Assembly (NCBI GenBank): GCA_964362215.1
Contig: CAYIDJ010000001.1
Coordinates: 13,151-77,150 of the forward strand
Length of the DNA stretch: 64,000 nucleotides
From: an uncultured Candidatus Saccharibacteria bacterium
Lineage (GTDB): Bacteria > Patescibacteriota > Minisyncoccia > UBA6257 > XYB1-36-10
Direction of reading: 5' to 3'
How positions within the stretch are numbered: the stretch's first letter is position 1; the number at the start of each line of letters is the position of its first letter. Shown here piece after piece: positions 9,498 through 37,917 of this stretch. The position numbers and the translations under genes are program-made. The notes beneath the pieces are model-generated. The model searched no databases. It had not been told where the DNA came from and saw only the letters and a list, made by a program, of their open reading frames with translations.

Positions 9498-9519
9498 TAA
9501 AAATCCGTTCCTTTCTGTA

Positions 9520-9621: not shown

Positions 9622-9897
9622 TTACTTAACCGCGTCCTTAAGCGCCTTGCCAGCCTTAAACTTCGGCACCGTGCTCGCCGCAATCTGTATCTTTTCGCCC
9701 GTCTTCGGGTTTACCCCAGCGCGCGCCGCCCGCTTCTGGGCCCTAAAAGTGCCGAATCCGGCTATTGCCACCTCGCCGCCTGACGCCAACTCCTTAGTAA
9801 TGGAATCAAACACGGCCTCTACCGCCGCCTTAGACGCCGATCGTGTCTCCAGGCTCGCCGCCTGCATCACCGCGTCAATAAGTTCTTCCTTTTTCAT
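9622..9897 (-). CDS. hup: DNA-binding protein HU
   Basis: MKKEELIDAV...GGEVAIAGFGTFRAQKRAARAGVNPKTGEKIQI is the canonical HU/IHF fold sequence. Confidence 0.9.
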   Translation of the reverse strand: MKKEELIDAVMQAASLETRSASKAAVEAVFDSITKELASGGEVAIAGFGTFRAQKRAARAGVNPKTGEKIQIAASTVPKFKAGKALKDAVK

Positions 9898-10019
9898 AAT
9901 AATGCGTGCAAGTTTTTATTTCTTACATTTCGACCTTTCCCCATTATAAATGCTTGTGTTTAGTATAGCAAACTCGCCTCCCCCGCACAAACACTTGATT
10001 TTCCCCCACTTCAAACAAA

Positions 10020-10583
10020 TCAAACTAACTTATTAGTAACCGCTTTTACCAACTCAGGAAATTCTTTATATTCACTACCAAAATGACCATGATCATTAAA
10101 CTCGTAATACTCCGTACTTAACATCTTATTTATTAACCTCGGAGCATCTATTGAAAAGTATGGATCATCAGTAGAAGCAAACTGTATAATCCATTTCTGA
10201 TTTTTCTTTATAGCTTCCCAATTCCAGGGTTCTTCAAAATAACCACTCTGTTTCTCACGTTCGTCTCCTAAATCGCTATCGTAAGCGGAAACAAGAACAG
10301 ATCCTAATATATTATTATTCTCTGCCCACCTCATAGCCGCTACTGCCCCACTTGAATGCCCGATTAAAATAGTATTTTTATCTACTTTCAATTCCTTCAA
10401 AAAATAAAACCAATATTTCTCCCTTGCTAAAATTGAGTCGGGAAATTCTTGATTGATTGTTTTTATTCCCTTTTTTTCTAATTCCTGTTTCACATAAGGA
10501 AACCATTTATCTTCCGGTTTATCTCCTCCATTACCCGGTACAATAACTGCTTTTATATTCAATGAATTGTTAATCATACTCAA
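10020..10583 (-). CDS. Alpha/beta-fold serine hydrolase (RBBP9/YdeN-like esterase family)
   Basis: GHSSGA nucleophile elbow, VIVPGNGG N-terminus, C-terminal HGHF. The gene is markedly more AT-rich than its neighbours. Confidence 0.65.
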   Translation of the reverse strand: MSMINNSLNIKAVIVPGNGGDKPEDKWFPYVKQELEKKGIKTINQEFPDSILAREKYWFYFLKELKVDKNTILIGHSSGAVAAMRWAENNNILGSVLVSAYDSDLGDEREKQSGYFEEPWNWEAIKKNQKWIIQFASTDDPYFSIDAPRLINKMLSTEYYEFNDHGHFGSEYKEFPELVKAVTNKLV

Positions 10584-10660
10584 TTATTTCTAATTTAGTC
10601 ATTAATTCGTCATTCGAAATTCAAAATTCGTCATTCCAGATAAAAAGCCCCTTGGGCTTT

Positions 10661-12190
10661 TTATCTGGCATATTCCACCGCCCGCATCTCCCTAATCACA
10701 TTCACCTTAATTTCCCCCGGATATCTCAACTCCGACTCTATCTTCTTGGCTACATCACGCGCCAAAGACAACGCTCCAAAATCATCCACCTTCTCCGGCA
10801 CCACAAATACCCGCAACTCCCTCCCCGCCGACAGCGCGTACGCCTTGCTGACTCCCTCAAAAGAAGTGGCTATCGCCTCTAGTTCTCCTAAACGCTTGAT
10901 ATAGTTTTCAATTGACTCCCGCCGCGCTCCCGGCCTGCCTGCTGACAACGCGTCCGCCGCCGCCACCACAAACGCTTCCGGAATGGCGTACGGATACTCA
11001 TCATGATGCGACTCCATCGCCCGTATTACCTTCTCGTCAATGTTGTACTTTTTCAGTATCTTCCGTCCGATCTCCACATGCGTACCCTCCACCTCGTGGT
11101 CTATCGCCTTGCCGATGTCATGCAAAAGCGCCCCCTTCTTCGCCGTCTCCACATCCAGCCCCAGCTCCGCCGCTATCATTTTAGCGATATGCGTCATCTC
11201 TACCGAGTGTGCCAGCACGTTCTGCCCGTAACTCGTCCGGAAGTGCAACCTCCCTAAAATCTGAATAATCTCCGGCGGCAGGTCATAAACCCCCACCTCC
11301 ATTGCCGCCTCCTCTCCCAACTCCTTTATCCTCTTGTTTATCTCCTGCTTCGCTTCCTCCACTTTCTCTTCAATTTTAACCGGCTGAATCCGCCCGTCTT
11401 TGAGTAGTTTATCCAGCGCCAGCCGTGCTATCTCCCGCCGCATCGGGTCAAACGACGACAAAGTCACACTGTCCGGAGCGTCGTCCACAATCAGCTCCAC
11501 TCCCGTCAACCGCTCTATCGCTCGGATATTGCGCCCCTCGCGCCCGATAATCTTTCCCTTCAAATCTTCGTCCGGCAACGTATAAACGCTGGTGGTAATC
11601 TCCGCCACTTTAGAACGGGCGTATCTCTGTACCGCCGCTGTTATAATTTCCAAACTCTTTGTCTCTTCCTCTTCCCGCCTGTTCCTCTCGGCTTTCTGCA
11701 ACACCTGTGCCAGCACTTCTCTCTCTCGCTCCATAATCTCATTCATCAGTTTTTCCTTCGCTTCCTCTTGCGTCATTCCCGCTGTCTTCTCCAGTTCCTT
11801 CTGCGCCTCCGCGTGCATCGTTTCTATCTGCTGCTTAGCCAGCTTCAGCTTCTCTACGTCCTGGTTTATATGCGTCTCGCGCCGCGACAAATCAGCTGTT
11901 GCCGTCTCCATCTGGTCCTCCTTGCGGGCTAATCTTTCTTCCATTTTATCTATCTGGTGTTTACGCTCCCGCTCTTCTCTCTTCACCTCCTCCAATTCCT
12001 TAACCGCCCTCTCCTTAGCTGTTAGTATTATTTCCGCCGCCTGCTTCTGCGCTTCTTCCAGCTTATTCTTCGCCTTTGCTTCCGCGCCGCCCACCTGATA
12101 AGTATTCCAAACTCTGTCTGCTAAAAAAGCGGCTACCGCTCCCGCGGCCGCAATCGCTAAATAAAGATAAAAATCTCCTCCTATATTCAT
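10661..12190 (-). CDS. rny: Ribonuclease Y
   Basis: N-terminal transmembrane helix, coiled-coil, KH domain (GREGRNIRAIERLTGVELIVDD), HD domain (LLHDIGKA...HHDEYPY). Confidence 0.9.
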   Translation of the reverse strand: MNIGGDFYLYLAIAAAGAVAAFLADRVWNTYQVGGAEAKAKNKLEEAQKQAAEIILTAKERAVKELEEVKREERERKHQIDKMEERLARKEDQMETATADLSRRETHINQDVEKLKLAKQQIETMHAEAQKELEKTAGMTQEEAKEKLMNEIMEREREVLAQVLQKAERNRREEEETKSLEIITAAVQRYARSKVAEITTSVYTLPDEDLKGKIIGREGRNIRAIERLTGVELIVDDAPDSVTLSSFDPMRREIARLALDKLLKDGRIQPVKIEEKVEEAKQEINKRIKELGEEAAMEVGVYDLPPEIIQILGRLHFRTSYGQNVLAHSVEMTHIAKMIAAELGLDVETAKKGALLHDIGKAIDHEVEGTHVEIGRKILKKYNIDEKVIRAMESHHDEYPYAIPEAFVVAAADALSAGRPGARRESIENYIKRLGELEAIATSFEGVSKAYALSAGRELRVFVVPEKVDDFGALSLARDVAKKIESELRYPGEIKVNVIREMRAVEYAR

Positions 12191-12488
12191 ATTTTTCTTT
12201 CTCTTTTACTCATGTTTCGCGCCAAAACACGGCAGTTTCCTGTCAAACCTGAAAAGCTGTGAGACCGGCTAAAAACCGCCGGTTATTTCCGTTCCCCGTC
12301 AATAGTGTCTCCGCTGCCCACGTTTCTTATTCTCTTCATTTTGGTGGTGGAAAATTCGCCTTTCAAATTCATTTCAGAAAACCTGACTTGTTGATAAAAT
12401 AAAAATTAATAAACTTTTTCTTACAATATACCTTTCTCTATATGGTACAATAACAATATATCAACTATTACTTTTAATTGTCAACTAC

Positions 12489-14021
12489 ATGTCGCGTACA
12501 GTCGTCTTGGTCGTGCTGGACGGCTGGGGTGTCGGCGATCACAATCGCGGCAATCCCATCTACTCCCAGCGCCCGCAAAGTATTGAATACTGCCGCCGTC
12601 ACTTTCCTGCCGGCGCCCTTCAGGCCTCCGGCATCGCCGTCGGCCTTCCTTGGGAAGAAGCCGGTAGCAGTGAAATCAGCCACTTGGTTATCGGCGCCGG
12701 CCGCACTGTTTACCAGCCGTATCCCCGCATCTCTCTCGCCGTCCGCGACGGCAGTTTTTTCTCTAATCCTACTCTTTTGGCCGCCGCCGACCACGCCACC
12801 GCTTCCGGCGGCTCTCTCCATCTCGTCGGCCTCCTTTCTGAATCCAATTCGGACGCTTCCCGCGAACACTTGGATGCCTTAATCAAGTTTACCTCTGACC
12901 GCTCCCTCCCCTACTGGCTCCACCTTATAACCGATGGCGTGGACAGCTCGCGTTCCGCCACCGACCTTATCAGCACTCTGCCCGACCCCAGCCGCGTTAT
13001 CAGCCTTTTCGGACGCTATTACGCCATGGACGAAGACGACCATTGGGACCGTATCGGTTCCTGTTATCGTGCTCTAACCGACCCCGCCGTCCCTTCCCTG
13101 GAAATCTCCACTCTCTTCACCGCCTCCCGCGCCTCCGGCGGCGACCAGTATATCGCCCCCTCTCCGGTTAACGCCCATCATCCGGTTAAAGACGGCGACG
13201 CTCTTATTTTTTTCAACTTTCGCGAGGACGGCTTACGCGAACTCGTCTCGCCCTTCGCCGACCCTCAATTCTCCGAATTCAAAACTGTCTCTTTCTCCAA
13301 CCTCTTTGTCGCCACTTTCTCCCGTTACAGCCGCGATTTTAAAGCCACCGTTGCTTTTGAAACCGACCTCCCTCAAACTCCGCTCGGGCGCGTCCTCTCC
13401 GCCGCCGGCAAAACCCAGCTCAAAATCGGTGAAACTATAAAATATTCTTCCCTCACTTACTTCTTTAACGGCTTCCGTGAAGCTCCTTATAAAAACGAAT
13501 ATCGGGTGCTTATTCCCTCCACCAGCACCCCCCACCCCGAATCCTCTCCCGCCCTCCGCGCCGCCGACATTACTGCTCGCGCCCTTCAGTCCATCAACGA
13601 ACGCGCCTTTGATTTTATCGTCGTCAACTACGCCAACCCTGACATTATCGGCCGCACCGGCAACCTGACTGCCGCCGAAGACGCCGTCCGCGTGCTCGAC
13701 GGCGAACTTAACAAAATCATCCGCGCCTCTCTTGAATCCGGCGCCACTCTCATTATTATGGGTAGTCACGGCAATATGGAACGCATGGTAAATCCCCTGA
13801 CCGGTGAATCGGAAACTGGAAACACCGCCAATCCCGTTCCCATCTACCTTCTCGGCCGCGAATTCCAAACTGTTAAAAATGACATTCGTCTGTCCGCGGA
13901 AGAACAAACTACCTCCGGTATCATCTCTGATGTCTCGCCTATGATTCTCAAACTTTTTGACATCTCTCTCCCCTCCGACATGACCGACTCCAATCTGCTA
14001 AAATTATTACAAAATCCATAA
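12489..14021 (+). CDS. gpmI: 2,3-bisphosphoglycerate-independent phosphoglycerate mutase (iPGM)
   Basis: VVLVVLDGWGVGDHNRGNPI N-terminus, ~510 aa, alkaline-phosphatase-like core (MGSHGNMERM). Confidence 0.75.
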   Translation: MSRTVVLVVLDGWGVGDHNRGNPIYSQRPQSIEYCRRHFPAGALQASGIAVGLPWEEAGSSEISHLVIGAGRTVYQPYPRISLAVRDGSFFSNPTLLAAADHATASGGSLHLVGLLSESNSDASREHLDALIKFTSDRSLPYWLHLITDGVDSSRSATDLISTLPDPSRVISLFGRYYAMDEDDHWDRIGSCYRALTDPAVPSLEISTLFTASRASGGDQYIAPSPVNAHHPVKDGDALIFFNFREDGLRELVSPFADPQFSEFKTVSFSNLFVATFSRYSRDFKATVAFETDLPQTPLGRVLSAAGKTQLKIGETIKYSSLTYFFNGFREAPYKNEYRVLIPSTSTPHPESSPALRAADITARALQSINERAFDFIVVNYANPDIIGRTGNLTAAEDAVRVLDGELNKIIRASLESGATLIIMGSHGNMERMVNPLTGESETGNTANPVPIYLLGREFQTVKNDIRLSAEEQTTSGIISDVSPMILKLFDISLPSDMTDSNLLKLLQNP

Positions 14022-14117
14022 TTTAAACTTTAATATTTATTATCTTTCTTATAATTTGTAATTTAGAAATTAGGATTTATTTAGAGTTTAGGATTTAGAG
14101 TTTAGAGTTTAATCAAT

Positions 14118-14486
14118 ATGCGCCTTATTTTTCGCTTCATCATCACTGCCGCTAGCAACGCCATCGCCCTTCTTTTACTCTCCGTCTATCTTACCGACGT
14201 CTCCATTTCCCCCGACCCCCTTGCCATTACTATCCTCTCCGTCATACTCGCCGCCGTCAATCTAATCATCCGCCCCTTCCTCCGCCTACTTCTCTCCCCT
14301 CTTATCATCCTAACCGCCGGCGCCGCCAGTTTTGCTCTAAGCGCCGCCCTTCTCTATACTCTTGACTTTGCTTCCAACGCCCTTACAATCAGCTCTATGC
14401 GCGCGCTGCTTATCTCAACCGTTATTATCTGGCTTATTAACTTTATTCTCGCCTCTAGCGCCCGTCTGGCCTATCCCCGTTCCTAA
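14118..14486 (+). CDS. DUF360 / phage-holin-4_2-like four-helix membrane protein
   Basis: 122 aa with four hydrophobic helices. The pattern resembles the YvlD/DUF360 family. Preceded by the TTTAGAGTTTAG motif array. Confidence 0.45.
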   Translation: MRLIFRFIITAASNAIALLLLSVYLTDVSISPDPLAITILSVILAAVNLIIRPFLRLLLSPLIILTAGAASFALSAALLYTLDFASNALTISSMRALLISTVIIWLINFILASSARLAYPRS

Positions 14487-14506
14487 AACACATAATTCTC
14501 ACTATT

Positions 14507-14719
14507 ATGTTCCTCAATATCACCCAAGCCATAATTGCCATTGCCCTGATTGCTCTCATTCTTATTCAGGAGCGCTCCTCCGGCCTTTCCGGCGCCTTTG
14601 GCGGCGGTGAAGCCGGTTTTACCCGCCAGCGCCGCGGTTTGGAAAAAATAATCTTCAACTCCACTTCCGTCCTGCTGGCCGCTTTTATTATTCTCTCCGT
14701 CCTGAACTTCGTCCTCTAA
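14507..14719 (+). CDS. secG: Preprotein translocase subunit SecG
   Basis: Two transmembrane helices with a central LIQERSSGLSGAFGGG motif. Confidence 0.8.
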   Translation: MFLNITQAIIAIALIALILIQERSSGLSGAFGGGEAGFTRQRRGLEKIIFNSTSVLLAAFIILSVLNFVL

Positions 14720-14830
14720 TCCTATTTTTAATTTTTTCCGCTTTGGATTTTAAATTGTCCCGACTTTGTCGAGGATGCTCGATAAAATCGGCATCATTTT
14801 ACACTTTAATATTTAAACTTTAAACTTTTT

Positions 14831-16492
14831 TTGTTCTCTAATCTGATAAACCTCTTTCGTCATCTCTCACACCCTGAACGGCGTTCCGTCTACATTACCG
14901 CTTTCGTCGCTCTCTTAGCCGTCACCGGCCTGGTATTCATCGGTTTTAATAACATAACTCGCGCCGTTCCCGTCCCCGGCGGCACCTGGACAGAAGGCAT
15001 TATCGGCCAGCCGGTTTTTATCAACCCGGTCATCTCCGGCAGCAACGATGCCGACCGCGACCTCATTGCCCTAACCTTCTGCTCTCTCTCTGATATCGCC
15101 GAAAAAATAGAACCCACCCGCGACCTCCAGGTCTGGCAGGTACGCCTCAAGGAAAACGCTCTCTGGCACGATGGTAAGCGTCTGACCAGCGACGATGTTA
15201 TCTTCACTATCGCCCGCATCCAGGACCCGGAGTACAAATCGCCGCAGAGCGCTACCTGGCAGGGAGTTACCGCTTCTCGCATCAGCGAACGCGAACTGTC
15301 TCTTTCTCTGGTCGCTCCCCTCTCTTTCTTCCCTGATAATCTGGAAAAACTTTATCTCATTCCCAAACATATCTTCGCCGATATTCCCTTAGCAAACTGG
15401 CGCCTCTCCGACTACAATCTTCAGCCCGTCGGCTGCGGCCCCTACCAATTTGACTCGTTTAAAAAACGGCCTGACGGCTTTATTACCCAGTTGAGCCTCA
15501 AAGCTAATCCCGACTATGTTGGCAACGCGCCTTTCATCTCTAACTTTGACATCGCTTTTTATACCGACCCCGAACAAGCCATTGAGGACTTTATCTTCGC
15601 TAAAATAGACGGCCTCGGCGGGCTTTCCAAAAAACAGTTGGATCAAATCCGCCGCAGTCACAATCTCTTCGCCCTCCCCACCCCCCGCTACTACTCCGTC
15701 TTTATTAACCAAAACGCCCACCCTGCTCTCAAAGACAAAAATGTACGTCTTGCCTTGGACAGCGCCATTGACCGTAACCTTCTCATCCGCGCCACCCTTG
15801 GCGGCTATGCCGAACCGGTTACCGGTCCCGTCACGCCCAACTTTCTGGAAGAAGTGGATCTGCCCCAGCCAACTGTCTCCCTCGATCCCCTGACTGATGC
15901 CGCTGATATTCTGGAGCAATCCGGCTGGAAACTGAACGAGAGCGGCACTCGCTCCAAAAAAATTAGTAAAAACGACGTTACCCTTGAGTTTGATTTGATT
16001 GTCCCGGAAATTGAGCCTCTCCTAAGCGCCGCCGAGTTTATCAAAAAAACCTGGGGTGAGATCGGCGTCAAAATCAACACCGTTATTCTCTCTCCGGAAA
16101 CAATTAACGGTAACGTTATCCGCGGCCGTAACTTCTCCCTCCTTCTTTTCGGTAATATCATTGGCCGTAGCCCGGACCTTTTCTCTTTCTGGCACTCCTC
16201 TCAAACCGACTACCCCGGCCTTAACCTCGCCCAGTACCAAAACCGCGCCGCCGACAAACTGATCGAATCTATCCGCCGCGGTGAAGACCCAGAGGAAGAA
16301 ACCAGCGACCTCGTCTCTCTTTACACCTTAATCCAACGTGACTTGCCGGCTGTCTTCCTTTATTCTCCGCAATATCTCTATCTTACCTCCTCCGACCTCA
16401 AGGGCTTCTCCGAAGATCTCATTGTCACCCCCGCCGACCGCTTCCGTAGCGTCTCTTCTTGGTATCTCAAAACCGCCCGCCAACTGAAATAA
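14831..16492 (+). CDS. ABC transporter substrate-binding protein, family 5 (peptide/nickel type)
   Basis: 553 aa, N-terminal anchor helix, SBP_bac_5-like conserved segments (WHDGKRLTSDDVIFT, ANPDYVG, KLIESIRRGEDPEE). No permease or ATPase genes adjacent. Confidence 0.65.
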   Translation: MFSNLINLFRHLSHPERRSVYITAFVALLAVTGLVFIGFNNITRAVPVPGGTWTEGIIGQPVFINPVISGSNDADRDLIALTFCSLSDIAEKIEPTRDLQVWQVRLKENALWHDGKRLTSDDVIFTIARIQDPEYKSPQSATWQGVTASRISERELSLSLVAPLSFFPDNLEKLYLIPKHIFADIPLANWRLSDYNLQPVGCGPYQFDSFKKRPDGFITQLSLKANPDYVGNAPFISNFDIAFYTDPEQAIEDFIFAKIDGLGGLSKKQLDQIRRSHNLFALPTPRYYSVFINQNAHPALKDKNVRLALDSAIDRNLLIRATLGGYAEPVTGPVTPNFLEEVDLPQPTVSLDPLTDAADILEQSGWKLNESGTRSKKISKNDVTLEFDLIVPEIEPLLSAAEFIKKTWGEIGVKINTVILSPETINGNVIRGRNFSLLLFGNIIGRSPDLFSFWHSSQTDYPGLNLAQYQNRAADKLIESIRRGEDPEEETSDLVSLYTLIQRDLPAVFLYSPQYLYLTSSDLKGFSEDLIVTPADRFRSVSSWYLKTARQLK

Positions 16493-16595
16493 CTTCCCCT
16501 TTGTCACTTGCCCGAACAACTCCGTTGGGCGGATTCCCGCGGCCTTTAGTCCTCGCGTCAGCGGGGAGGGAATCCATCTCCTCTTCTTCCCTTCT

Positions 16596-16624
16596 GTCAT
16601 CCCAGCGAAAGCTGGGATCCAGTC
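16596..16624. repeat. Family-3 hairpin repeat, copy 2
   Basis: gtcatcccagcgaaagctgggatccagtc. Confidence 0.7.
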
Positions 16625-16726
16625 CCCCCCTCCGTCCTTCCAAGTCCACCCACATCAAACAATAAATCTCCGTCTTCCAGTTATTGTATTTAACTATCGT
16701 ATCTTGTATCTTTTTATTGTCTTTAT

Positions 16727-16812
16727 GGGGATGTGGCGAAATGGCAGACGCGCAGCGTTCAGGGCGCTGTGAGCGCAAGCTCGTGGGAGTTCAAATCTCC
16801 CCATCCCCACCA
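16727..16812 (+). tRNA. tRNA-Leu (anticodon CAG), long variable arm, CCA encoded
   Basis: GGGGATGTGGCGAAATGGCAGACGCGCAGCGTTCAGGGCGCTGTGAGCGCAAGCTCGTGGGAGTTCAAATCTCCCCATCCCCACCA. Confidence 0.9.
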
Positions 16813-24236: not shown

Positions 24237-24584
24237 TTATTTCTTCGCTTCTTCTACTATCTTAGTAAACGCTCCCGGATGCTCCTCCGCCAATTCCGCC
24301 AGCATCTTCCGGTCAATCTGTATGTTTTGCTTCTTAAGCGCCGCTATCAGTTCGCTGTATTTCATCCCCCTCTCTCTCGCCGCCGCGTTTATTTTCACCT
24401 GCCATAATCGCCTCGCCGTCCGCTTCTTCTGCTTCCTCCCCTTAAAAGCGTTCGTCAAAGCATGCAGTAACGCCGTCTTCGCTAGACGTTCTTTATTCTT
24501 CCTTCCCCAACGATATCCTTTTGTCTGTTTTAGTATTGCTTTCCTCCGCTTTACTTTATTGGTCCCTCTTTTTACTCTTGGCAT
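24237..24584 (-). CDS. rplT: 50S ribosomal protein L20
   Basis: MPRVKRGTNKVKRRKAILKQTKGYRWGRKN... Confidence 0.9.
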   Translation of the reverse strand: MPRVKRGTNKVKRRKAILKQTKGYRWGRKNKERLAKTALLHALTNAFKGRKQKKRTARRLWQVKINAAARERGMKYSELIAALKKQNIQIDRKMLAELAEEHPGAFTKIVEEAKK

Positions 24585-24872: not shown

Positions 24873-25380
24873 TTATTTTTTACCCACTACCTGGACGGTA
24901 AAGCCCCTTCCCACAAACTTTATCGGCGTCATTACCGCGTACGGCACTGATATCTTCTCCACAAACGCCTGGAGCTTCCCTTTGGCAAAATCCCTATTTG
25001 CCTTCTCTCTTCCCTTTAAGAAAAGCTGAATCTCAACTTTATCACCGTCTTTTAAAAAGTCAACCACTTGCCTTAATTTTCTCTCTAAGTCATTACTGGC
25101 CGCCCGTGGCGTTATGCGCATATGCCTAAGTTCGCCTCCCTTCTGCGTCTGTTTTTGTTTGCGCGCCTGTTTGCCTTGCTGGTATCGGTACTTGTCAAAA
25201 CTTATTATCTTCGCCACCGGCGGGTCTGCTTTTGCTCCTACCTCCACCAAGTCCAACCCCGCCGCCTCCGCCTGGCGCAACGCCTCCTCTTTAGTCACCA
25301 CCCCCAGATTTTCTCCCGCTGGTCCAATAAGACGGACCTGGCTAGCCGTAATCTGATGGTTAATCCGCGCCGCCGGTATT
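24873..25380 (-). CDS. infC: Translation initiation factor IF-3 (start codon probably non-canonical, ATT at 25365 or ATA at 25380)
   Basis: RINHQITASQVRLIGPAGENLGVV...DLVEV...PPVAKIISFDKYRYQ and the C-domain. The longer ATG-initiated ORF adds a non-homologous extension. Confidence 0.8.
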
Positions 25381-31393: not shown

Positions 31394-31777
31394 TGTGGAG
31401 ATGATGGGAATTGAACCCACGTCCGATCTGGAAATTCAGTAACTTCTACAGGCGTATACTGGCTATTTTTTGCGTCGGCAAGTTTAAGCCAGTCGTAATG
31501 CTTGCCGCCGCCATCCCTGTGCCTTTTCCTCTTTGCTTCCGGTCTGCCGAAGCGAGAGTAAGTCCGCTTTTATAACACCGCTCTCCGTCCCCGCGAACAT
31601 AGAGACAGAACGATGGTCCCGAATATATATCGGAACGGTCAGTTCAGCTTAAGCGTAAGCTAAAGCCGGCTGCCTGTTGAATACATTGGCATGTATTATT
31701 TTTGACGCGTTTACGGCCGCCGTCCCACCGGCCTGCTATTACTGATTTTCTTCAACCGTCGATGCCTTGCATCCCCT
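31394..31777 (-). ncRNA. ssrA: tmRNA (SsrA)
   Basis: 5' GGGGATGCAAGGCATCGACGG.... 3' tRNA-Ala-like end GTGGGTTCAATTCCCATCATCTCCA with a G3:U70 pair and A73. The internal frame GCC AAT GTA TTC AAC AGG CAG CCG GCT TTA GCT TAC GCT TAA gives tag ANVFNRQPALAYA. smpB is adjacent. Confidence 0.8.
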
Positions 31778-32083: not shown

Positions 32084-32524
32084 TTACATTTTCAATATTC
32101 TATCAATCTTCCTGACTGCCTCCTTCTTCTTTATCTTCTCCCTCTTATCATACTTCTTTTTCTTTCTTCCCACTCCTAAGAGCACCTTTACTCTTCTTCC
32201 CTTATTATACACTTTCAAAGCCACTATTGTCAAGCCGCGTTCCTCCGATTTTCCTCTCAATCTTTCTATCTCCTGCCGGTGCAGCAGCAGCCGCCGCGTC
32301 CGGCTGGAATCAAAACCATCTGGTTCATTCCCCGGCTGGTACGGCGCGATTTCCGTTCCCACCAAATACGCCTCTACCCCGCGCACAATCGCCTGCGCTC
32401 CCGTTATCTGCATCTTCCCCGCCCGCGCCGCCTTCACCTCAAATCCGGTCAGCTCTATCCCCGCCTCTATTTCCTCTATTATTTCATAATCAAACCTTAC
32501 CCTTTTGTTCTCCGCTAATGCCAT
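32084..32524 (-). CDS. smpB: SsrA-binding protein SmpB
   Basis: MALAENKRVRFDYEIIEEIEAGIELTGFEVKAARAGKMQITGAQAIVRG... Start trimmed to Met at 32524. The longer ORF extends into non-homologous sequence. Confidence 0.85.
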   Translation of the reverse strand: MALAENKRVRFDYEIIEEIEAGIELTGFEVKAARAGKMQITGAQAIVRGVEAYLVGTEIAPYQPGNEPDGFDSSRTRRLLLHRQEIERLRGKSEERGLTIVALKVYNKGRRVKVLLGVGRKKKKYDKREKIKKKEAVRKIDRILKM

Positions 32525-32591
32525 AAACTTTAGTATAGGCCGAAAAGCGCGACTTAACAAAGCCCCTTTTTTGCCGTAAAATGAAGCCATT

Positions 32592-35500
32592 ATGGCTACC
32601 ACCGACAACCGCCCTCTTCCTGAACGAGAAAAAGAAATCCTCGCCTTCTGGGAGGATAAAAAAATTTTTACCAAATCCCTCCAACAAACTGCCAAGGGTA
32701 AACCTTTTGTTTTTTATGAAGGCCCCCCTTCCGCCAACGGCCGCCCCGGCCTCCACCACGTTCTTGCTCGCGCTTTCAAAGACATCATCTGCCGCTATCA
32801 GACCATGTGCGGCCGCTATGTCGCCCGCCGCGCCGGCTGGGACACCCACGGCCTCCCCGTGGAAGTCCAGGTGGAAAAAGAGTTGGGACTGAAAAGTAAG
32901 CGCGATATTGAAAATATCGTCCCCGGCGACCGCCGCGCCAGCATCATCACCTTCAACCAGAAATGCCAAGAATCCGTCTGGCGCTACCGCGACCTCTGGG
33001 AAAAGTTAACTTCTCGTATGGGCTATTGGTTAGATATGGAAAATCCTTATGTTACTTATGAACCGGAATATATCGAATCTCTCTGGTGGATTATATCCCA
33101 AGTTAACCGCCAAGGCCTTCTTTACCAAGGCCATAAAATTCTTCATTGGTGTCCCCGTTGCGGCACCGGCCTCTCCTCTCACGAAATCGCTCAGGGTTAC
33201 CAAACCGTCACCGACACCTCTGTTTTCGTAAAATTCAAACTCGCCCCTCATCAAAAAATCGGTAAAATAACCGTCCCCGCCAATACCTATATTCTATCCT
33301 GGACCACCACCCCTTGGACCCTCCCCGGCAACGTCGCTTTAGCGGTCAATAAAAATATAAAATACGTTCTCGTTAAAATTGGCTCCGAAAACTTTATCGC
33401 TTCGGCGGACTTTCTCTTCCAACTCAAAGAAAAAACAATTTCTGTATCCAATAAACAAATCAAAGGCCAGAATCTGATCGGCCTTAAATACGAGCCGCTC
33501 TTTAACATTCCCAAACTTAAATCCCCCGCCTCCCATCAAATTTATCACGCCGATTTTGTTACTACCTCCGAAGGCGCCGGCATCGTCCACACCGCCGTTA
33601 TGTATGGCGAAGACGACTACGAACTGGGCCAAAAATATAATCTTCCCGCCATCCACACCGTGGATGACGCCGGCCGCTTTCTTAAATTCGTCTCCGCCGG
33701 CCTCGCCGGCCTTGCCGTCAAAGATTCCGCCACCACCAAGAAAATCATCTCTTATCTGGAAAATAAAAACTTCCTCCTTAAAACCGCTCCCTACGAACAC
33801 GAATACCCTTTCTGCTGGCGCTGCGACACGCCCGTCATCTACTACGCCCGCTCTTCCTGGTTTATCAAGATGTCCGCCCTCAAAGACAAACTCATTAAAA
33901 ATAACTCGTCCATCAGCTGGGTTCCCTCTCATCTTAAAAATGGTCGCTTCGGTGAATGGTTAAGTAACGTCAAGGACTGGGCTGTTTCCCGCGAACGCTA
34001 CTGGGCCACTCCTTTACCCATCTGGCTCTGCTCCTCTTGTAATCACCTAGAAGTTATCGGCAGTTTGTCCGAATTAGATAAACTCACTGTCTCCTCCAAT
34101 AACCGCTTTTTCATTATGCGCCACGGTCAAGCTCTCTCTAACGTCAAAAACTTCTTGAGCTCTTACCCGGAAAAACGCCTCAACCCCCTCACTCCCGCCG
34201 GCGCTAAAGAAATGCTGTCCGCCGCCGCCCGCCTTAAATCAAAAAAGATTGATCTTATTGTTTCCTCCGACCTCCCTCGCGCCCACGCTACTGCCAAACT
34301 CATCGCCTCTGCTCTCGGCATTAAAAAAGTCGCTATTGACAAGCGCCTGCGCGAGCGCGACTTCGGCCAAGATAACGGCCTGCCGATTAAAAACGCTGAC
34401 TCCTCGCAACACGAACCGCTATCCAGTATCCGCGCCCGCGTAATAAAAGCGCTTTTTGACACCGACCGCCAGTATCAAAATAAAAACATTCTTTTTATCA
34501 GTCACGGTTCTCCTCTGCTTACTCTTCGCCTCGCCGCCGAAAACACTGACAATACTCTCCCCGTCAATGAACCTCTTTTGCCTACCGGCGGCTGGCAGGA
34601 GCTTAAACTGAAACGTCTTCCCCGAAACGACGATGGCGCCGTAGACCTTCACCGCCCTTATATTGATGAAGTTAAGCTCTCCTGCCCCTCCTGCCGCCAT
34701 TCCCTGACTCGCGTACCCGATCTCCTTGATGTTTGGTTTGACTCCGGCGCCATGCCTTTTGCCGCCCCCCGCTTCCCTTTCGCCGTCAAAAAACTTGCCG
34801 CCACCGACTATCCCGCCGACTATATCTCCGAAGCCGTTGACCAGACCCGCGGCTGGTTCTATACCCTTCTTGCCGTCTCTACTCTCTTAGGTTTCAAAGC
34901 TCCTTACCGCCACGTCATCTCCTTGGGACACCTCAACGATAAACACGGCCAGAAAATGTCCAAATCTCGCGGCAATATAGTTGACGCGGAAGAAATGATG
35001 GAACGCTACGGCGCCGATATTGTCCGCTGGCACTTTTACACCATTAACCAACCCGGCGACACCAAAAACTTTGACGAATCCGACCTCAAGAAAGTTACTA
35101 ATCGGGTTTTTAATATTCTTCAAAACTCTCTTGTCTTCTACCAAACATACCGCGCCTCGCCGAAACTTCATGCACAACCTAAGTATAGTCAAAGGACAAA
35201 AAACATTCTGGATCTCTGGCTCGCCGCCCGCCTCACTGCCACCAAACTGGAGATAACTTCTCGATTAGACAAATACGACGTTTATCACGCCGCCTTAAGT
35301 ATTGAAAAATTAATTGACGATCTTTCTCGCTGGTATATCCGCCGCTCCCGTTCCCGCTTTCAACAACCCACTTCTACCTCCGACCACGTTGCCGCCTCTG
35401 TCACTCTCCGCTCCGCCCTTATGGAAATATCCGCCCTTCTCGCTCCCTTCACGCCCTTCTTCGCTGAGTGGCTCTATAAAGAACTGGGTGGCTCTAAAGA

Positions 35501-36071
35501 ATCAATTCATCTAGAGTCGTGGCCAAAAACCTCCCCCAAAATAGACCCCGCTCTTCTTTCCCAAATGGAAACAGCTCGCCAACTCTCAAGTTTAGGACTA
35601 TCCGAACGCTCATCCTTAAATATCAAAGTCCGTCAGCCCCTCGCCGAAATGAAAGTGTCGCTAGACACCCTAAGCGCAGTCAAAGGGTCTCATCTGCCAA
35701 AAGAAATAGTCGCCCTCGTCGCCGATGAGGTTAATGTTAAAAAAATATCTCTCGGTAATCGCCTCGCCAAAGACAAAGAAGTTGAACTTGACGCCGTCAT
35801 CACTCCCGCTCTTCGCGAGGAAGGCAACTTGCGCGAACTAATCCGCGCCGTTCAGTCCCTCCGCGCCGCCGCCGGCTTAAAACCCGGAGAACCAGTTTCT
35901 CTTTTCTTCCAATCCTCCCCTGTCGCTTCCGCCTTTATCATTAAACACACCGCCGCCCTCACTAAGGCCTGCTCTCTTAAAACCGTTTCCGCCAACTCCG
36001 TCTCTTCTCCTAAATCAAGCCGTGCGCTCTCCTTAGACGACCTCGGCCCTATCTCTCTCGCGATAAAATAA
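32592..36071 (+). CDS. ileS: Isoleucyl-tRNA synthetase carrying an inserted histidine-phosphatase (PGAM-like) domain
   Basis: HIGH-region PSANGRPGLHHV, GWDTHGLPVE, CP1 editing domain, KMSKS (QKMSKSRGN). ~180 extra residues (aa ~500-682) contain RHGQ...SHGSPL histidine-phosphatase motifs between the conserved IGSLSEL and DLHRPY segments. Confidence 0.85.
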   Translation: MATTDNRPLPEREKEILAFWEDKKIFTKSLQQTAKGKPFVFYEGPPSANGRPGLHHVLARAFKDIICRYQTMCGRYVARRAGWDTHGLPVEVQVEKELGLKSKRDIENIVPGDRRASIITFNQKCQESVWRYRDLWEKLTSRMGYWLDMENPYVTYEPEYIESLWWIISQVNRQGLLYQGHKILHWCPRCGTGLSSHEIAQGYQTVTDTSVFVKFKLAPHQKIGKITVPANTYILSWTTTPWTLPGNVALAVNKNIKYVLVKIGSENFIASADFLFQLKEKTISVSNKQIKGQNLIGLKYEPLFNIPKLKSPASHQIYHADFVTTSEGAGIVHTAVMYGEDDYELGQKYNLPAIHTVDDAGRFLKFVSAGLAGLAVKDSATTKKIISYLENKNFLLKTAPYEHEYPFCWRCDTPVIYYARSSWFIKMSALKDKLIKNNSSISWVPSHLKNGRFGEWLSNVKDWAVSRERYWATPLPIWLCSSCNHLEVIGSLSELDKLTVSSNNRFFIMRHGQALSNVKNFLSSYPEKRLNPLTPAGAKEMLSAAARLKSKKIDLIVSSDLPRAHATAKLIASALGIKKVAIDKRLRERDFGQDNGLPIKNADSSQHEPLSSIRARVIKALFDTDRQYQNKNILFISHGSPLLTLRLAAENTDNTLPVNEPLLPTGGWQELKLKRLPRNDDGAVDLHRPYIDEVKLSCPSCRHSLTRVPDLLDVWFDSGAMPFAAPRFPFAVKKLAATDYPADYISEAVDQTRGWFYTLLAVSTLLGFKAPYRHVISLGHLNDKHGQKMSKSRGNIVDAEEMMERYGADIVRWHFYTINQPGDTKNFDESDLKKVTNRVFNILQNSLVFYQTYRASPKLHAQPKYSQRTKNILDLWLAARLTATKLEITSRLDKYDVYHAALSIEKLIDDLSRWYIRRSRSRFQQPTSTSDHVAASVTLRSALMEISALLAPFTPFFAEWLYKELGGSKESIHLESWPKTSPKIDPALLSQMETARQLSSLGLSERSSLNIKVRQPLAEMKVSLDTLSAVKGSHLPKEIVALVADEVNVKKISLGNRLAKDKEVELDAVITPALREEGNLRELIRAVQSLRAAAGLKPGEPVSLFFQSSPVASAFIIKHTAALTKACSLKTVSANSVSSPKSSRALSLDDLGPISLAIK

Positions 36072-36111: not shown

Positions 36112-37917
36112 TTATATTTCAATAACTACCGGCAACAACATCGGCCGCCTCTGCGTCTTATGAAAAATAAACTGCCCGATCTGATCGCGTATAAGTCCCT
36201 TAAAATAATCCGCGTCTATCGGTTGGTTTGTCGGTATCCTAGAAATCAAACTGCGTATCCGCCGCCTTATCTCGTCCAAAATCTCACGGTTATCTTTAAG
36301 ATAAATAAATCCGCGCGAAATAATATCCGGATTTTTTATAATCCTCCCACTCCGTTTATCTAAAGTCGTAATTATGACTATCATTCCCTCCTGCGCCAGC
36401 ATCAATCGGTCTCGCAGTACCACCTCTCCCACGTCTCCTACTCCCAACCCGTCTACCATCACATAATATGCCGGTACTGTCTCTTTGGTTAATTTAATCG
36501 TCTCCTTGGTTATCTCCGCCACCTGCCCATTGTCCATTACTAAACAATTCTCCGCTTTCACTCCCACCGCCTGCGCGTTCTTGGTATTCGTCTGTCGCAT
36601 AAAATACATTCCGTGAATCGGCACGAAAAACTTTGGTGAGAATGCTTTAATCGCCAATTTCAAATCTTCCTGCGGCCCGTGTCCACCCGCGTGAATGTCC
36701 ATCATGCTGGAATCAAATATAATCGCTCCCTGCCGCGCTAAATTATCTTTCATTGTCTGAATTCCTCTCTCATTACCTGGAATTATTGACGAAGAAAACA
36801 CCACCGTATCCCCCGGTTTTATCCGTATCTGCTTATGGTCTCCGGAAACTATTCTTGCCAGTCCCGAATTCGGCTCGCCCTGATTTCCGGTTGAAAGTAT
36901 TAATATTTTATTGTCATCATACCGACTCACCTCCTCCAGCGATATTAACGCCCCTTTCGGTATCTTTATATACCCAAGATTCTGGGTAATCTGGATATTA
37001 TCCTTCATTGACCGCCCCGAAAGCGCCACCTTCCGCCCCAGCCGGTGCGCTATGTTTATCACCTGCCCCAGCCGGTCCAGTAGCGACGCGAAAGTCGTCA
37101 CAATAATCCTGCCCTTCGCCTGATTCAAAATCTTCTCCAGATTCTCCTCCGCCACCTTCTCCGGCATCGACTCCCCCGGCACGGTTGCTCTAGTGCTCTC
37201 CATAAAGAGTACCTGTATTCCCATTCTTCCTACCCGTTCCAGATCCGGCAGATTGCGCGGTTCTCCTTTCGGTCCCCGATCAATTCTAAAGTCGCCCGGA
37301 TTACAAAAGTTTCCCGCTGGCGTTCTCAACACTATGGAAATCGCGTCTGGAATTGTATGCGACCCACCGAAGAAATATGCCGAAAAGTTTTGTGATATTT
37401 TAACCTCATCTCCTATCTTCACCGGCATAAAAGTAATCTTCGGCGCGTTCGGAAACTCGTCGTACCGCTTCTTTATGAGCGCGTTGGAAAGCGCCGTAGA
37501 GTAAATCGGCGGGTTGCCGATTTTCTCCATTATGTAAGGAATAGCCCCGATATGGTCCAAATGTCCATGTGTTATCAGTAATGCCTTTATTTTTCGCTTG
37601 TTTTCCTGTAAATACTCAATATTAGGAATAATAAAGTCAATTCCCGGCGTGTCCTCTTCCGGAAACTGCAGTCCAGCGTCAATAATCACAATTTCATCGC
37701 CATACTCAAAAAACATCATATTTCGCCCTATCTCCTCCAGCCCTCCTAACGGCACAAACCTCACCGCCTCCGGATTCCGTTCCAGTGCCTTTACTTCCAC
37801 CCGCCGCGGCTCACCGCTGATATACCTCATTGACGGCCTTCCTTCTATCGGCCTTCTTCCAACTCTTCTCGCTGTCGTTTTGGTTCTAATTCCCTCCCCA
37901 ACTATTCTTCTGTTCAT
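36112..37917 (-). CDS. rnj: Ribonuclease J
   Basis: Metallo-beta-lactamase HGHLDHIGAIPY, beta-CASP domain and C-terminal domain. The N-terminal ~30 residues may be an over-extension (alternative Met at 37830). Confidence 0.85.
   Translation of the reverse strand: MNRRIVGEGIRTKTTARRVGRRPIEGRPSMRYISGEPRRVEVKALERNPEAVRFVPLGGLEEIGRNMMFFEYGDEIVIIDAGLQFPEEDTPGIDFIIPNIEYLQENKRKIKALLITHGHLDHIGAIPYIMEKIGNPPIYSTALSNALIKKRYDEFPNAPKITFMPVKIGDEVKISQNFSAYFFGGSHTIPDAISIVLRTPAGNFCNPGDFRIDRGPKGEPRNLPDLERVGRMGIQVLFMESTRATVPGESMPEKVAEENLEKILNQAKGRIIVTTFASLLDRLGQVINIAHRLGRKVALSGRSMKDNIQITQNLGYIKIPKGALISLEEVSRYDDNKILILSTGNQGEPNSGLARIVSGDHKQIRIKPGDTVVFSSSIIPGNERGIQTMKDNLARQGAIIFDSSMMDIHAGGHGPQEDLKLAIKAFSPKFFVPIHGMYFMRQTNTKNAQAVGVKAENCLVMDNGQVAEITKETIKLTKETVPAYYVMVDGLGVGDVGEVVLRDRLMLAQEGMIVIITTLDKRSGRIIKNPDIISRGFIYLKDNREILDEIRRRIRSLISRIPTNQPIDADYFKGLIRDQIGQFIFHKTQRRPMLLPVVIEI

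Follow-up and report, generated by a model that had tools for sequence, protein, structure and literature searches.

Aminoacyl-tRNA synthetases are among the best-studied enzymes, and their accessory domains for editing, tRNA binding and signalling are a major route to new translation functions. In the class Ia synthetases, lineage-specific insertion modules tune the handling of tRNA (10.64898/2026.02.03.703510; PMC13454842). The isoleucyl enzyme (IleRS) of T. thermophilus has a Zn-binding motif in CP3 (PMC7191050), and in yeast IleRS the CP2-CP3 linker ARDWNVSRNRYWG lines the pocket for the CCA end (PMC7955072). In the type-2 enzymes, IleRS2, GXHH is a recognised variant of the HXGH class I signature (PMC10485003). 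A preliminary description of the DNA analysed here reported an IleRS with a phosphatase in its midst and was aware of no phosphatase domain fused into a synthetase body. This is true of the literature that we searched, in which no description of a histidine phosphatase within a synthetase was found, but not of the databases, where hundreds of proteins with precomputed Pfam domains have the nested architecture, which is thus not peculiar to this genome.

The gene is located in a 64-kb stretch of DNA, hereafter called the window (coordinates are those of the window, plus strand unless stated). The ileS gene (32592..36071) is a single ORF of 1159 aa that forms a continuous reading frame in the ORF list and encodes a type-2 (eukaryote-like) IleRS together with the nested phosphatase domain. 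Its product matches TIGR00392 with 848.3 bits (cutoff 621.4) in two stretches that are split by the insert. The AF2 model of the full-length product (pLDDT 87.8, pTM 0.81) has P. megaterium IleRS2 as its best Foldseek match (8c8u, E=1e-85; TM 0.73/0.81), and its overall fold includes the CP1 editing domain and type-2 anticodon and C-terminal domains, the latter recognised by Pfam as Anticodon_1 and DUF5915. This ORF is the type-2 IleRS of the organism and, judged by sequence and fold, is predicted to aminoacylate tRNA-Ile; a second ileS was not found within the 64-kb window. The class I signature has the non-canonical GXHH form (G53-L54-H55-H56, read from the sequence at 32748..32759). Among the 119 aligned homologues that serve for all family counts below, H55 is conserved in 117 and H56 in all, while G53 is present in at least 90% of a 53-sequence alignment. 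The CP3 zinc knuckle consists of a first CxxC directly 5' of the insert (C480 and C483, 34029..34040; conserved in 117/119 and 112/119, respectively) and a second CxxC 3' of it (C698 and C701, 34683..34694; 116/119 and 117/119). In the family alignment these are followed by the WFDSG motif that begins the second half of the Rossmann fold (34734..34748), in which W715, D717 and G719 are each found in 119/119, and by the KMSKS loop (K788-M-S-K-S792, 34953..34967), all five positions of which are likewise invariant.

The phosphatase is nested at the tip of this knuckle, between the C480/C483 CxxC and the DLHRP...C698/C701 CxxC. It is a PhoE-like histidine phosphatase of the His_Phos_1 type that was identified with Pfam and extends, by alignment with insert-less IleRS, over residues 498-684 (34083..34643; residues 500-683 correspond to 34089-34640). 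PF00300 matches residues 507-656 of the whole product with E=1e-22 and the excised insert with E=5.9e-25, the latter scoring 88.5 bits against a gathering score of 21.7 bits. Residues 497 and 679 align to 476 and 481 of the closest solved IleRS (P. megaterium IleRS2, 8c8w), and the distance from SR.R(Y/F)W to W(F/Y/V)(D/E)S is 257 residues versus 73-86 in insert-less Patescibacteria IleRS, so both alignment and motif spacing place the length of the insert at ~180 aa. The preliminary description had put the flanks of the insert ~20-30 residues apart in a standard enzyme; in insert-less enzymes they are only ~4-10 residues apart. Its view of an in-frame domain insertion, as opposed to two genes, is nevertheless borne out by the continuous ORF, the HMM matches, conservation in relatives and structure prediction, in which the insert folds well alone (pLDDT 92.1, pTM 0.89). 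The predicted fold has TM 0.74-0.78 to structures of GpgP, PhoE, HFP and PGAM by Foldseek, and the nearest solved relatives by profile are PhoE (1EBB/1H2E, E~1e-30), the phosphoserine phosphatase iPSP1 and CobC. At its C-terminal end, the chain is brought back to CP3 by a junction conserved in the family alignment, P-R-N-x-x-G-x-x-D-L-H-R-P (34620..34658), in which P677 (112/119), R678 (99/119), G682 (116/119), and H687 and P689 (both 119/119) stand out.

The assignment of the insert to the branch-1 histidine phosphatases, which had been proposed from an RHG motif and a second catalytic histidine at canonical spacing, is likewise upheld by HMM, structure prediction and conservation. The two motifs lie in FFIMRHGQALSN (residues 506-517) and ILFISHGSPLLTL (residues 633-645), respectively. 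As defined by the family alignment, the RHG motif (34119..34127) comprises R510, the predicted phospho-acceptor H511 and G512; it is followed by the second phosphate-binding arginine, R563 of the SSDxxR motif (34278..34280), by E588 of the RLRE motif (34353..34355), by E608 of a "GES" motif that reads HEP in the window (34413..34415), and by the second catalytic histidine, H638 of the SHG/SHE motif (34503..34505). R510, H511, R563 and H638 are each found in 119/119 family members and in 80/80 species representatives, and E608 in 119/119. The E588 position, which from homology with PhoE and dPGM we take to be the proton donor, is occupied by E in 114 and by D in 5 of 119 sequences, and by one or the other in 80/80 species representatives. 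The catalytic set R-H-x-R-(E/D)-E-H is complete in all 80 species representatives at an overall identity of 43-51% and is intact in every complete copy of the multi-copy variants. Catalysis is under purifying selection, even though the domain overall changes more quickly than the catalytic body (mean pairwise identity 0.42 vs 0.64). From its conserved residues, the nested domain is very probably an active phosphatase.

More specific names for the insert were rejected. Its scores remain below those expected of a cofactor-dependent phosphoglycerate mutase (NF038349, 64-70 bits vs 225; TIGR01258, 29.8 vs 81.7), an alpha-ribazole phosphatase CobC (TIGR03162, 47.7-54.6 bits vs a cutoff of 162.9), a phosphohistidine phosphatase SixA (TIGR00249, 28.6-29.1 vs 74.5) and a phosphoserine phosphatase of the PspA type (NF045917, 33-37 vs 350). 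An intein or other self-splicing element is also rejected, as Pfam reports only His_Phos_1 and the phosphatase fold fills the whole insert.

Analysis of relatives indicates that this architecture is widespread. PF00300 is present in all 120 of the best database homologues of the window IleRS, and among 80 species-representative Parcubacteria/Paceibacteria genomes gathered by whole-protein scan, every one has the phosphatase nested within a single ileS ORF, with at least 79 sharing the insertion site of the window enzyme. The nested phosphatase is the standard IleRS architecture in a large block of Parcubacteria/Paceibacteria. An assembly chimera or frameshift artefact that joined two genes, the prospect of which is negligible, is refuted by this recurrence across independent genomes; moreover, an NCBI contig of 80.6 kb encodes the identical protein, an independent sample (P0002) yielded a copy with 79% identity, the IleRS sequence picks up in frame on either side of the insert, and GC content is unbroken across both junctions. 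Apparently split IleRS proteins of ~750 aa, consisting of the phosphatase and the C-terminal half of IleRS, were discounted as contig-end fragments. The insert also appears to degrade automatic naming, since many of the nested synthetases bear the name "class I tRNA ligase family protein" and not IleRS or ValRS.

The neighbourhood of ileS is in part conserved. An smpB ORF on the minus strand (32084..32695) is divergent from ileS and overlaps its start region; tblastn with the SmpB of a related locus (L001) matches 32099-32521 of the window with E=8e-28. Downstream, an ORF for an RNase J-like protein (36112..37917, minus strand) is convergent with ileS and is a conserved neighbour, with counterparts in related loci L012 and L013 that contain Lactamase_B/RNase_J Pfam domains. 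The order smpB, ileS, RNase J recurs in L013, and RNase J is located downstream of ileS in 9 of the 80 species loci. In L012 and in 27/80 species loci, argS is directly 5' of the phosphatase-containing ileS. We found no free-standing histidine phosphatase (HP) paralogue, argS, tsaC, CYTH, RtcB or CCA-adding enzyme gene within the 64-kb window.

The link of this phosphatase to class Ia synthetases takes further forms. In relatives with an insert-less IleRS, the same subfamily exists as a separate ~189-aa gene. In 6 of the 7 contexts sampled this gene stands between argS and ileS, forming argS-HP-(0-1 gene)-ileS clusters with spacers mostly of 1-10 nt or overlaps; the seventh free-standing HP gene does not adjoin ileS. 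At one such locus (L011), the gene between HP and ileS encodes a CYTH (triphosphate-tunnel) protein. A TsaC::HP fusion lies directly downstream of an insert-less ileS, whose final base is the first of the fusion gene. Within IleRS itself the phosphatase also occupies the further sites A', C and B (n=3), in hosts confirmed as IleRS, with site B located before the anticodon-binding domain and far from CP3; these sites were read straight from the junction sequences, MAFFT placement being wrong for several. The ValRS of Gracilibacteria/Peregrinibacteria contains 1-4 phosphatase copies, mostly at the homologous CP3 position. HP is present in 70/119 best ValRS matches, and 74 of 84 ValRS HP domains are located between DWCISRQ and DTWFSS, the equivalent of CP3. 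The closest insert-less ValRS (L015), the one case examined, has no HP neighbour. Among the best 150 cluster representatives from an exhaustive search, the scanned multi-domain proteins were all IleRS, ValRS, the TsaC fusion or tandem HP. A poorly resolved NJ tree of 127 domain copies has nested, free-standing and TsaC-fused copies interleaved, and multi-copy nested and multi-copy free-standing forms grouped together. Because of the argS-HP-ileS clusters, the TsaC fusion, the further IleRS sites and the ValRS insertions, functional coupling of the phosphatase to the synthetase is probable; the clusters, the TsaC fusion and the ValRS insertions are the strongest evidence for it. We infer from neighbourhood, fusions and recurrent insertion that class Ia synthetases have in the phosphatase a dedicated partner and not a passenger.

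What such a partner may do is a matter of graded likelihood. We place at about even the chance that it is an active PhoE-like phosphomonoesterase working with the synthetase, likely by clearing a phosphate that blocks charging. By the chemistry of the family, R510 and R563 would hold the phosphomonoester while H511 attacks, E588 would protonate the leaving group, and the phospho-histidine intermediate would be supported by H638 and then hydrolysed. The reaction would most likely remove a phosphate that otherwise prevents productive charging. The lead candidate would be a 3'-phosphate or 3'-pyrophosphate on the tRNA acceptor end, which would amount to built-in tRNA-end repair, and the next would be a phosphorylated nucleotide bound at the synthetic site. 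The tRNA 3' end leads because CP3 comes after the linker that lines the CCA pocket, the window sequence VKDWAVSRERYWA being ~8 residues ahead of the first CxxC. With CP3 anchored between this linker and the WFDSG of the amino-acid site, the domain would be held beside the synthetic site. Chemically, a phosphomonoesterase could plausibly act on a 3'-phosphate of tRNA; histidine phosphatases do not typically accept a 2',3'-cyclic phosphate, which is a diester. There is also a described source of blocked ends, as toxSAS toxins pyrophosphorylate the tRNA 3'-CCA end and thereby stop charging (PMC11559606; 10.1101/2021.04.30.441581). Nonetheless, the guess that the substrate is a phosphate blocking the 3' end of tRNA is one that we regard as possible but doubtful. 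More speculative is the generalisation that class Ia synthetases of candidate-phyla-radiation (CPR) bacteria carry built-in tRNA-end repair, in which HP would act in cis on the CCA end and take off its 3'-phosphate or 3'-pyrophosphate just before charging. Possible sources of such groups are toxSAS-type toxins, phage-defence systems of hosts or competitors, and RNase damage, and the free-standing gene of the argS-HP-ileS clusters would be the ancestral trans-acting form.

Several observations bear on this reading. No contact between CP3 and tRNA was found in PMC11685878. The closest solved relatives of the insert are all small-molecule phosphatases, the free-standing HP gene is as near to argS as to ileS, one such gene does not adjoin ileS, and the insert-less ValRS of L015 has no HP neighbour; each of these counts against it. 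That the domain also occurs far from CP3 (site B) and in 2-4 tandem copies speaks against a requirement for precise geometry. To our knowledge, no histidine phosphatase acts on RNA ends, and translation-gene clusters also contain functionally unrelated genes. The window insert is very basic (pI 10.1, +11), but charge is no signal for RNA binding and was rejected as a proxy for it, since across the family the inserts average +3.0 per 100 aa, barely above the +2.4 of the IleRS bodies, and P0127, a free-standing member, is acidic. A link through t6A, by way of TsaC, tRNA-Ile and tRNA-Arg, was set aside, as ValRS carries the domain too; we also know of no phosphomonoester in the t6A pathway.

A different account, to which we give a real but minority chance, is that a housekeeping PhoE-like small-molecule phosphatase hitch-hikes in a permissive CP3 loop, with no mechanistic link to aminoacylation. 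Its gene would have sat by chance in the argS-ileS cluster, and the domain would be retained for its own activity only. Operon proximity supplies the opportunity for capture and streamlined CPR genomes are fusion-prone (PMC5370408), but chance sits poorly with repeated joining to Ile/Val class Ia synthetases, at a homologous CP3 site in two paralogues and in different lineages, or with the narrow choice of partners among the best 150 representatives. The varying insertion sites and copy numbers suggest that geometry is not critical, while the conserved P-R-N-x-x-G junction suggests defined docking and not a floppy tether. Similarly, the broad-specificity or metabolite phosphatases that are its nearest solved relatives, the name "PhoE" given by JGI to the free-standing forms and evolution faster than that of the catalytic core are all expected of a passenger, yet the architecture is kept in 80/80 species. 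Alternatively, the domain may clear products or ligands at the synthetic site, such as PPi, AMP, Ap4A/p4A-type or 3'-phosphorylated adenosine nucleotides, so that the activation reaction would be pulled or protected. We consider this unlikely. It is established enzymology that IleRS, ValRS, the neighbouring ArgRS and TsaC all use ATP and release AMP and PPi, but all 20 synthetases make these products and the domain is confined to the Ile/Val enzymes; furthermore, we know of no branch-1 histidine phosphatase that is a pyrophosphatase. CP3 is beside the ATP/CCA pocket, and 2-4 tandem copies would suit a role in which more copies mean more activity. The CYTH gene between HP and ileS in L011 would fit too, but is a single case.

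That the domain is a protein phosphatase is a long shot; it would undo an inhibitory phosphorylation that, for instance, HipA/HipT-type kinases could place on the synthetase itself near the KMSKS loop. The superfamily includes the protein phosphatases SixA, PGAM5 and Sts, and HipA phosphorylates GltX and HipT phosphorylates TrpS; however, we know of no kinase that targets IleRS or ValRS, and the neighbourhoods sampled showed no kinase gene. CP3 is near catalytic-site elements in sequence, and the window copy, in which 13 cap residues are missing, would have a more open site, but the full cap is kept in most family members, and the NCBIfam match to SixA is weak (28.6 bits, cutoff 74.5). RNA-binding or structural roles are common among synthetase insertions, and the domain could in principle be a non-catalytic module (structural, for dimerisation, or phosphate/tRNA-binding) or a glycolytic dPGM moonlighting inside IleRS. 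Both ideas are very improbable, as the full catalytic set is kept without exception by the 119 family members and the 80 species representatives, although domain identity is ~42%, while the best NCBIfam name, archaeal dPGM, comes with 64 bits against the 225-bit cutoff of dPGM_arch, and our reading of the sequence places RLRE-x-x-x-G in a context without the dPGM "ER.YG" substrate motif.

An intact phosphatase active site within the catalytic body of IleRS is conserved over a large part of Patescibacteria and is mirrored in ValRS, in the argS-HP-ileS cluster and in the TsaC fusion. Should it act on tRNA ends or on synthetic-site ligands, charging would prove to be linked to a new step of quality control or repair, in minimal-genome, episymbiotic organisms. 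With tRNA-end repair in particular, IleRS, and Gracilibacteria ValRS, would by themselves withstand an entire class of attacks that block translation. Even as a passenger, the phosphatase would represent a striking recurrent capture of a domain at the CP3 loop of two paralogous essential enzymes. The phosphatase hypothesis is directly testable with recombinant protein.

For completeness, we compare the nested enzyme with known systems. PhoE of G. stearothermophilus (1H2E/1EBB) and GpgP of M. tuberculosis (Rv2419c, 4QIH/6S2Q) share with the insert its fold, the RHG, second Arg, Glu and second His, and a similar size of ~190-210 aa. They are free-standing enzymes with known small-molecule substrates, whereas the insert is nested in a synthetase or, in relatives, encoded by the gene of the argS-HP-ileS cluster; its identity to them is only ~21-24%, it reaches no NCBIfam equivalog cutoff, and it lacks 13 cap residues. 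The bifunctional RNase H/acid phosphatase (NF005567, Rv2228c type) also combines a branch-1 histidine phosphatase with a nucleic-acid enzyme, but as an end-to-end fusion and not as a nested insertion in a synthetase, and the insert matches its phosphatase half with 58-65 bits, far under the 326-bit cutoff. The small alarmone hydrolases that reverse toxSAS pyrophosphorylation would be the counterpart in function should the nested phosphatase act on tRNA ends, with both taking off a phosphate group that prevents aminoacylation (PMC11559606, PMC11782079). They are free-standing antitoxins and HD-domain hydrolases, with a fold unrelated to that of histidine phosphatases, whereas the window phosphatase is nested and its action on tRNA hypothetical.

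On the side of the synthetase, the best sequence and fold matches are the type-2, mupirocin-resistant IleRS of P. megaterium (8C8U-W) and T. thermophilus (1ILE). The window enzyme resembles the type-2 IleRS in its Anticodon_1 and DUF5915 domains, its GXHH signature and its CP3 CxxC...CxxC, as in T. thermophilus, and differs in having ~180 extra CP3 residues where 8c8w has ~4. A curated precedent for an IleRS with an additional enzymatic domain exists in NF040702 (ileS_w_GNAT); there the domain is a GNAT and not a histidine phosphatase, and the window IleRS is excluded from that family by its score (297.8 bits vs a cutoff of 1999). The CP1 editing domain, the leucine-specific and ZN domains of LeuRS and the INS subdomain of IleRS2 are likewise inserted into loops, either of the Rossmann fold or of the anticodon-binding region. 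However, these class Ia modules act on aminoacyl esters or bind tRNA, and none is a phosphatase. Among them only CP1 has an independent catalytic site.

The ileS gene is a single uninterrupted ORF (32592..36071, + strand) encoding 1159 amino acids. The product scores 848 bits on the NCBIfam IleRS model TIGR00392 (cutoff 621), the match being split into two stretches, and its Pfam domains are tRNA-synt_1, Anticodon_1 and DUF5915. A histidine-phosphatase domain (His_Phos_1, PF00300; hereafter HP) lies at residues 507-656, flanked by both halves of tRNA-synt_1 (E=1e-22 for the whole protein), and the excised segment 34089-34640 gives E=5.9e-25 and 88.5 bits against a threshold of 21.7 bits. When aligned to the closest solved IleRS, the IleRS2 of P. 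megaterium (8c8w), query residues 497 to 679 correspond to chain residues 476 to 481; the distance from SR.R(Y/F)W to W(F/Y/V)(D/E)S is likewise 257 residues in the window versus 73-86 in insert-less Patescibacteria IleRS. These two comparisons define an insert of ~180 amino acids at residues ~498-684 (34083-34643). The in-frame phosphatase insertion proposed in the preliminary description is thus borne out, including its insertion point, with one correction: the flanking segments, thought to be 20-30 residues apart in standard IleS, are just a few residues apart once the insert is left out, both in 8c8w and in insert-less Patescibacteria. GC content is unbroken across both junctions and the nested domain recurs in 80/80 species (the best 80 of 562 relatives), which argues for a domain insertion rather than an assembly chimera. 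The host is a type-2 IleRS, showing every defining feature of that type that could be tested. Its class I signature is the GXHH variant (GLHH, residues 53-56, 32748-32759), with H55 present in 117 and H56 in all of 119 family members; this variant has been tied to mupirocin hyper-resistance in IleRS2 (PMC10485003).

The insert belongs to branch 1 of the histidine phosphatase superfamily and displays all of the testable features that define it. A full-length AF2 model (pLDDT 87.8, pTM 0.81) has IleRS2 as its top PDB match and reaches 91-96 over most of the insert, which also folds when predicted alone (pLDDT 92.1, pTM 0.89) and then superposes on GpgP (Rv2419c), PhoE and other branch-1 phosphatases with TM 0.74-0.78. 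Compared with solved structures, the subfamily profile finds PhoE (1EBB/1H2E) at E~1e-30, followed by the phosphoserine phosphatase iPSP1 and CobC. None of the NCBIfam equivalog cutoffs for dPGM, CobC, SixA, PspA or GpmB is reached by the insert, and membership in dPGM, CobC, SixA and PspA was rejected with scores far under the cutoffs. It forms a PhoE-like subfamily of its own rather than being a mutase. The RHG and second-histidine (SHG) motifs quoted in the preliminary description are present at residues 510-512 and 637-639. Among 119 full-length homologues R510, H511, R563, E608 and H638 are invariant, and position 588 has E in 114 and D in the other 5. Taken overall, the domain changes more quickly than the catalytic body (mean pairwise identity 0.42 versus 0.64), so this invariance is a property of the catalytic residues in particular. 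At the C-terminal junction, a P-R-(N/D)-x-x-G motif is conserved. The window copy is among the shortest, without 13 cap-region residues found in most relatives, and its substrate pocket may be more open than theirs. The cap gap falls at 34389-34412 (residues ~600-607), where the family consensus is EYHKLFPTY...EEKF, and the window reads HEP where the family has GES(L); a similar cap deletion occurs in two further proteins, P0008 and P0009.

The nested phosphatase is lineage-wide and not an artefact. In a collection of 5.8 billion proteins, PF00300 and IleRS domains occur together in 120/120 best matches (47-100% identity), whose source names include Paceibacterota, Liptonbacteria, Jorgensenbacteria, Colwellbacteria and Parcubacteria. 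Scanning a single genome for each species gave 562 relatives, of which the best 80, 43-51% identical, were analysed; these span Jorgensen-, Wolfe-, Lipton-, Wildermuth-, Yanofsky-, Nealson-, Sungii-, Harrison-, Colwell-, Azam-, Morani- and Magasanikbacteria, among others. In every one of these best 80 of 562, ileS is a single ORF containing a nested HP and the R-H-x-R-(E/D)-E-H pattern is intact. The domain lies at the window's site for 79 of 81 HMM pieces, the two failing pieces being halves of a single domain (locus L074) that is split by an internal insertion.

The insertion site follows a first CxxC (C480/C483) and precedes DLHRPYIDE and a second CxxC (C698/C701), and each of these four cysteines is kept in 112-117 of 119 family members. 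In T. thermophilus IleRS the CP3 subdomain, which joins CP2 to the second half of the Rossmann fold, bears a zinc-binding motif (PMC7191050). Together with the conserved flanking CxxC pairs, this places the phosphatase within the CP3 zinc knuckle. In yeast IleRS, the pocket that takes the tRNA 3'-CCA end is built in part by the CP2-CP3 linker ARDWNVSRNRYWG (PMC7955072); the linker's counterpart in the window, VKDWAVSRERYWA, stops ~8 residues before C480, and on the downstream side CP3 leads to WFDSG at 715-719. Judging from sequence, CP3 would be anchored at both ends on elements of the synthetic site. In some nested IleRS the zinc cysteines are gone and the phosphatase is kept, as in the Liptonbacteria protein P0009 (locus L013) and in P0175, where CP3 examples read 'WQTEDGLE' and 'WRSSPDATD'; the zinc knuckle is thus dispensable once the domain is present.

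Additional sites in IleRS were read directly from sequences. Site A', just after DLHKENVDRITW, is occupied in P0175 and P0255. Proteins P0144 (locus L014, 5001-9260) and P0161 each carry two HP at separate sites, neither of which is that of the window: site C, after WFESGSMPYA and before ADFIAEGLDQTRGWFY, and site B, in the loop preceding the anticodon-binding domain. IleRS model scores for P0144, P0161 and P0175 are 816-830 bits; P0255 is a fragment with IleRS as its best match (412 bits). The P0144 and P0161 domains are acidic (pI ~6.2), unlike single-copy ones, and the L014 neighbourhood is not CPR-like, with an SLH-domain protein, DAHP synthase and adenylosuccinate synthase. Nesting extends to ValRS, where P0121 is a fragment with four HP copies (valS 411 bits versus ileS 199). 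ValRS with nested HP forms a family in Gracilibacteria/Peregrinibacteria, 70 of the 119 best matches bearing 1-3 copies, and 74 of 84 such domains are flanked by DWCISRQ and DTWFSS, a location that corresponds by homology to the window's site, with 8 of 84 in the CP2 region. CP3 is thus a hot spot for nested HP. Catalytic residues are kept in every complete copy of the multi-copy proteins checked. Within the ValRS set (P0121, P0397-P0514), proteins with HP are intermixed with ValRS of ~880-980 aa that lack the insert. Many of the nested IleRS and ValRS proteins carry only the NCBI name 'class I tRNA ligase family protein', presumably an annotation consequence of the insertion breaking the equivalog match.

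Matches to the insert alone in an exhaustive search were a mix of IleRS-embedded copies and free-standing proteins of ~190 aa, the latter matching at identities equal to or above those of the embedded copies (42-47%). Free-standing HP constitutes a large Patescibacteria family with >300 members at E<=1e-15. In 6 of 7 sampled contexts its gene lies between argS and an insert-less ileS, with spacers that are mostly 1-10 nt or overlapping; an intervening gene is found in one case without a Pfam match and in one as CYTH. The CYTH (triphosphate-tunnel) gene, at 4570-5160 of locus L011, separates HP from ileS; a 330-aa protein without a Pfam match fills this slot in L009, and L011 also has an RVT_1 reverse-transcriptase gene upstream. 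The sole free-standing HP away from ileS among the 7 contexts is P0122 (L005). It lies, on the opposite strand, ~3.5 kb from RtcB, an RNA 3'-phosphate ligase, and ~2.3 kb from TGT (L005 348-1496 and 1592-2719), a nearness that may be coincidental. In locus L003 (8001-9179) HP forms the C-terminus of a fusion with TsaC (Sua5/YrdC), which functions in t6A synthesis; this gene (P0132) begins at the final base of an insert-less ileS, and at a distance of a few kb are a CCA-adding enzyme and TGT. Pfam confirms the TsaC part for P0132 only, and P0136 and P0196 are probably further such fusions given their length and C-terminal HP. Additionally, argS is directly upstream of ileS with nested HP in L012 and in 27 of 80 species loci (best 80 of 562), as though the phosphatase had passed from its place between the two genes into ileS itself. 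A neighbor-joining tree of the domain copies lacks the resolution needed to count events.

The window itself has the order smpB, ileS with nested HP, RNase J, as in L013, and argS was not found in its 64 kb. The smpB ORF (32084-32695, - strand) is immediately upstream of ileS and divergent, and adjoins tmRNA (31395-31776, -; tag ANVFNRQPALAYA); IF3 (~24951-25367, -) and L20 (~24243-24584, -) lie further upstream, and this gene set also flanks ileS in related loci. Six tRNA genes occur at 3778-16812, none of the 64-kb window's tRNA genes being tRNA-Ile; those for Phe, Leu and Gly end in CCA and those for His, Pro and Arg do not encode it, so that a CCA-adding enzyme is needed. GC skew is negative throughout 1-64000 (-0.24 to -0.41 in every 4-kb block, whatever the gene orientation), an unusually strong strand asymmetry; cumulative skew is monotonic, and neither an origin nor a terminus lies in the window.

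The phosphatase's catalytic apparatus is complete, is under strong purifying selection and is physically or genetically coupled to IleRS and, elsewhere, to ValRS. We infer that HP is an active phosphomonoesterase using an H511 phospho-histidine mechanism, and its function is probably connected with the synthetase. Recurrence of the association as neighbourhood, as fusion and as nesting at several sites in two paralogues argues against pure chance. Our leading hypothesis, which we hold tentatively, is that HP would strip a phosphate or pyrophosphate blocking the tRNA acceptor end: CP3 adjoins the CCA-end pocket, and toxSAS toxins, which pyrophosphorylate the CCA end, provide a precedent for such a block.

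The main rival is that a housekeeping small-molecule phosphatase was caught from the adjoining gene into a permissive loop and is mechanistically unlinked to aminoacylation. In favour of this rival, all solved relatives are small-molecule phosphatases, distant sites and tandem copies are tolerated, the inserts carry no charge signal and a check of ValRS neighbours was negative; against these points stands the repeated association with synthetases, and we regard such a capture as possible without being probable. Action on phosphorylated nucleotides or PPi at the synthetic site is unlikely, and dephosphorylation of the synthetase itself more unlikely still.

The nested phosphatase, which makes this a synthetase with an accessory catalytic domain, is part of a wider, undescribed phosphatase-synthetase association in Patescibacteria, and would surprise an aminoacyl-tRNA synthetase specialist. 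In the literature searched, which included a 2026 preprint on IleRS-wide phylogeny and the 2023 structural paper on IleRS2, we came across no account of a synthetase containing a histidine phosphatase; precomputed Pfam annotations do show the architecture, which is hence 'known' to databases but apparently not to the literature. Two near analogies exist. IleRS with a GNAT domain (NF040702) is a different domain combination, and membership of the window protein in that family was rejected with a score far under the cutoff. The RNase H/acid-phosphatase fusion (NF005567) is also a different combination, and is joined end-to-end whereas the phosphatase described here is nested.
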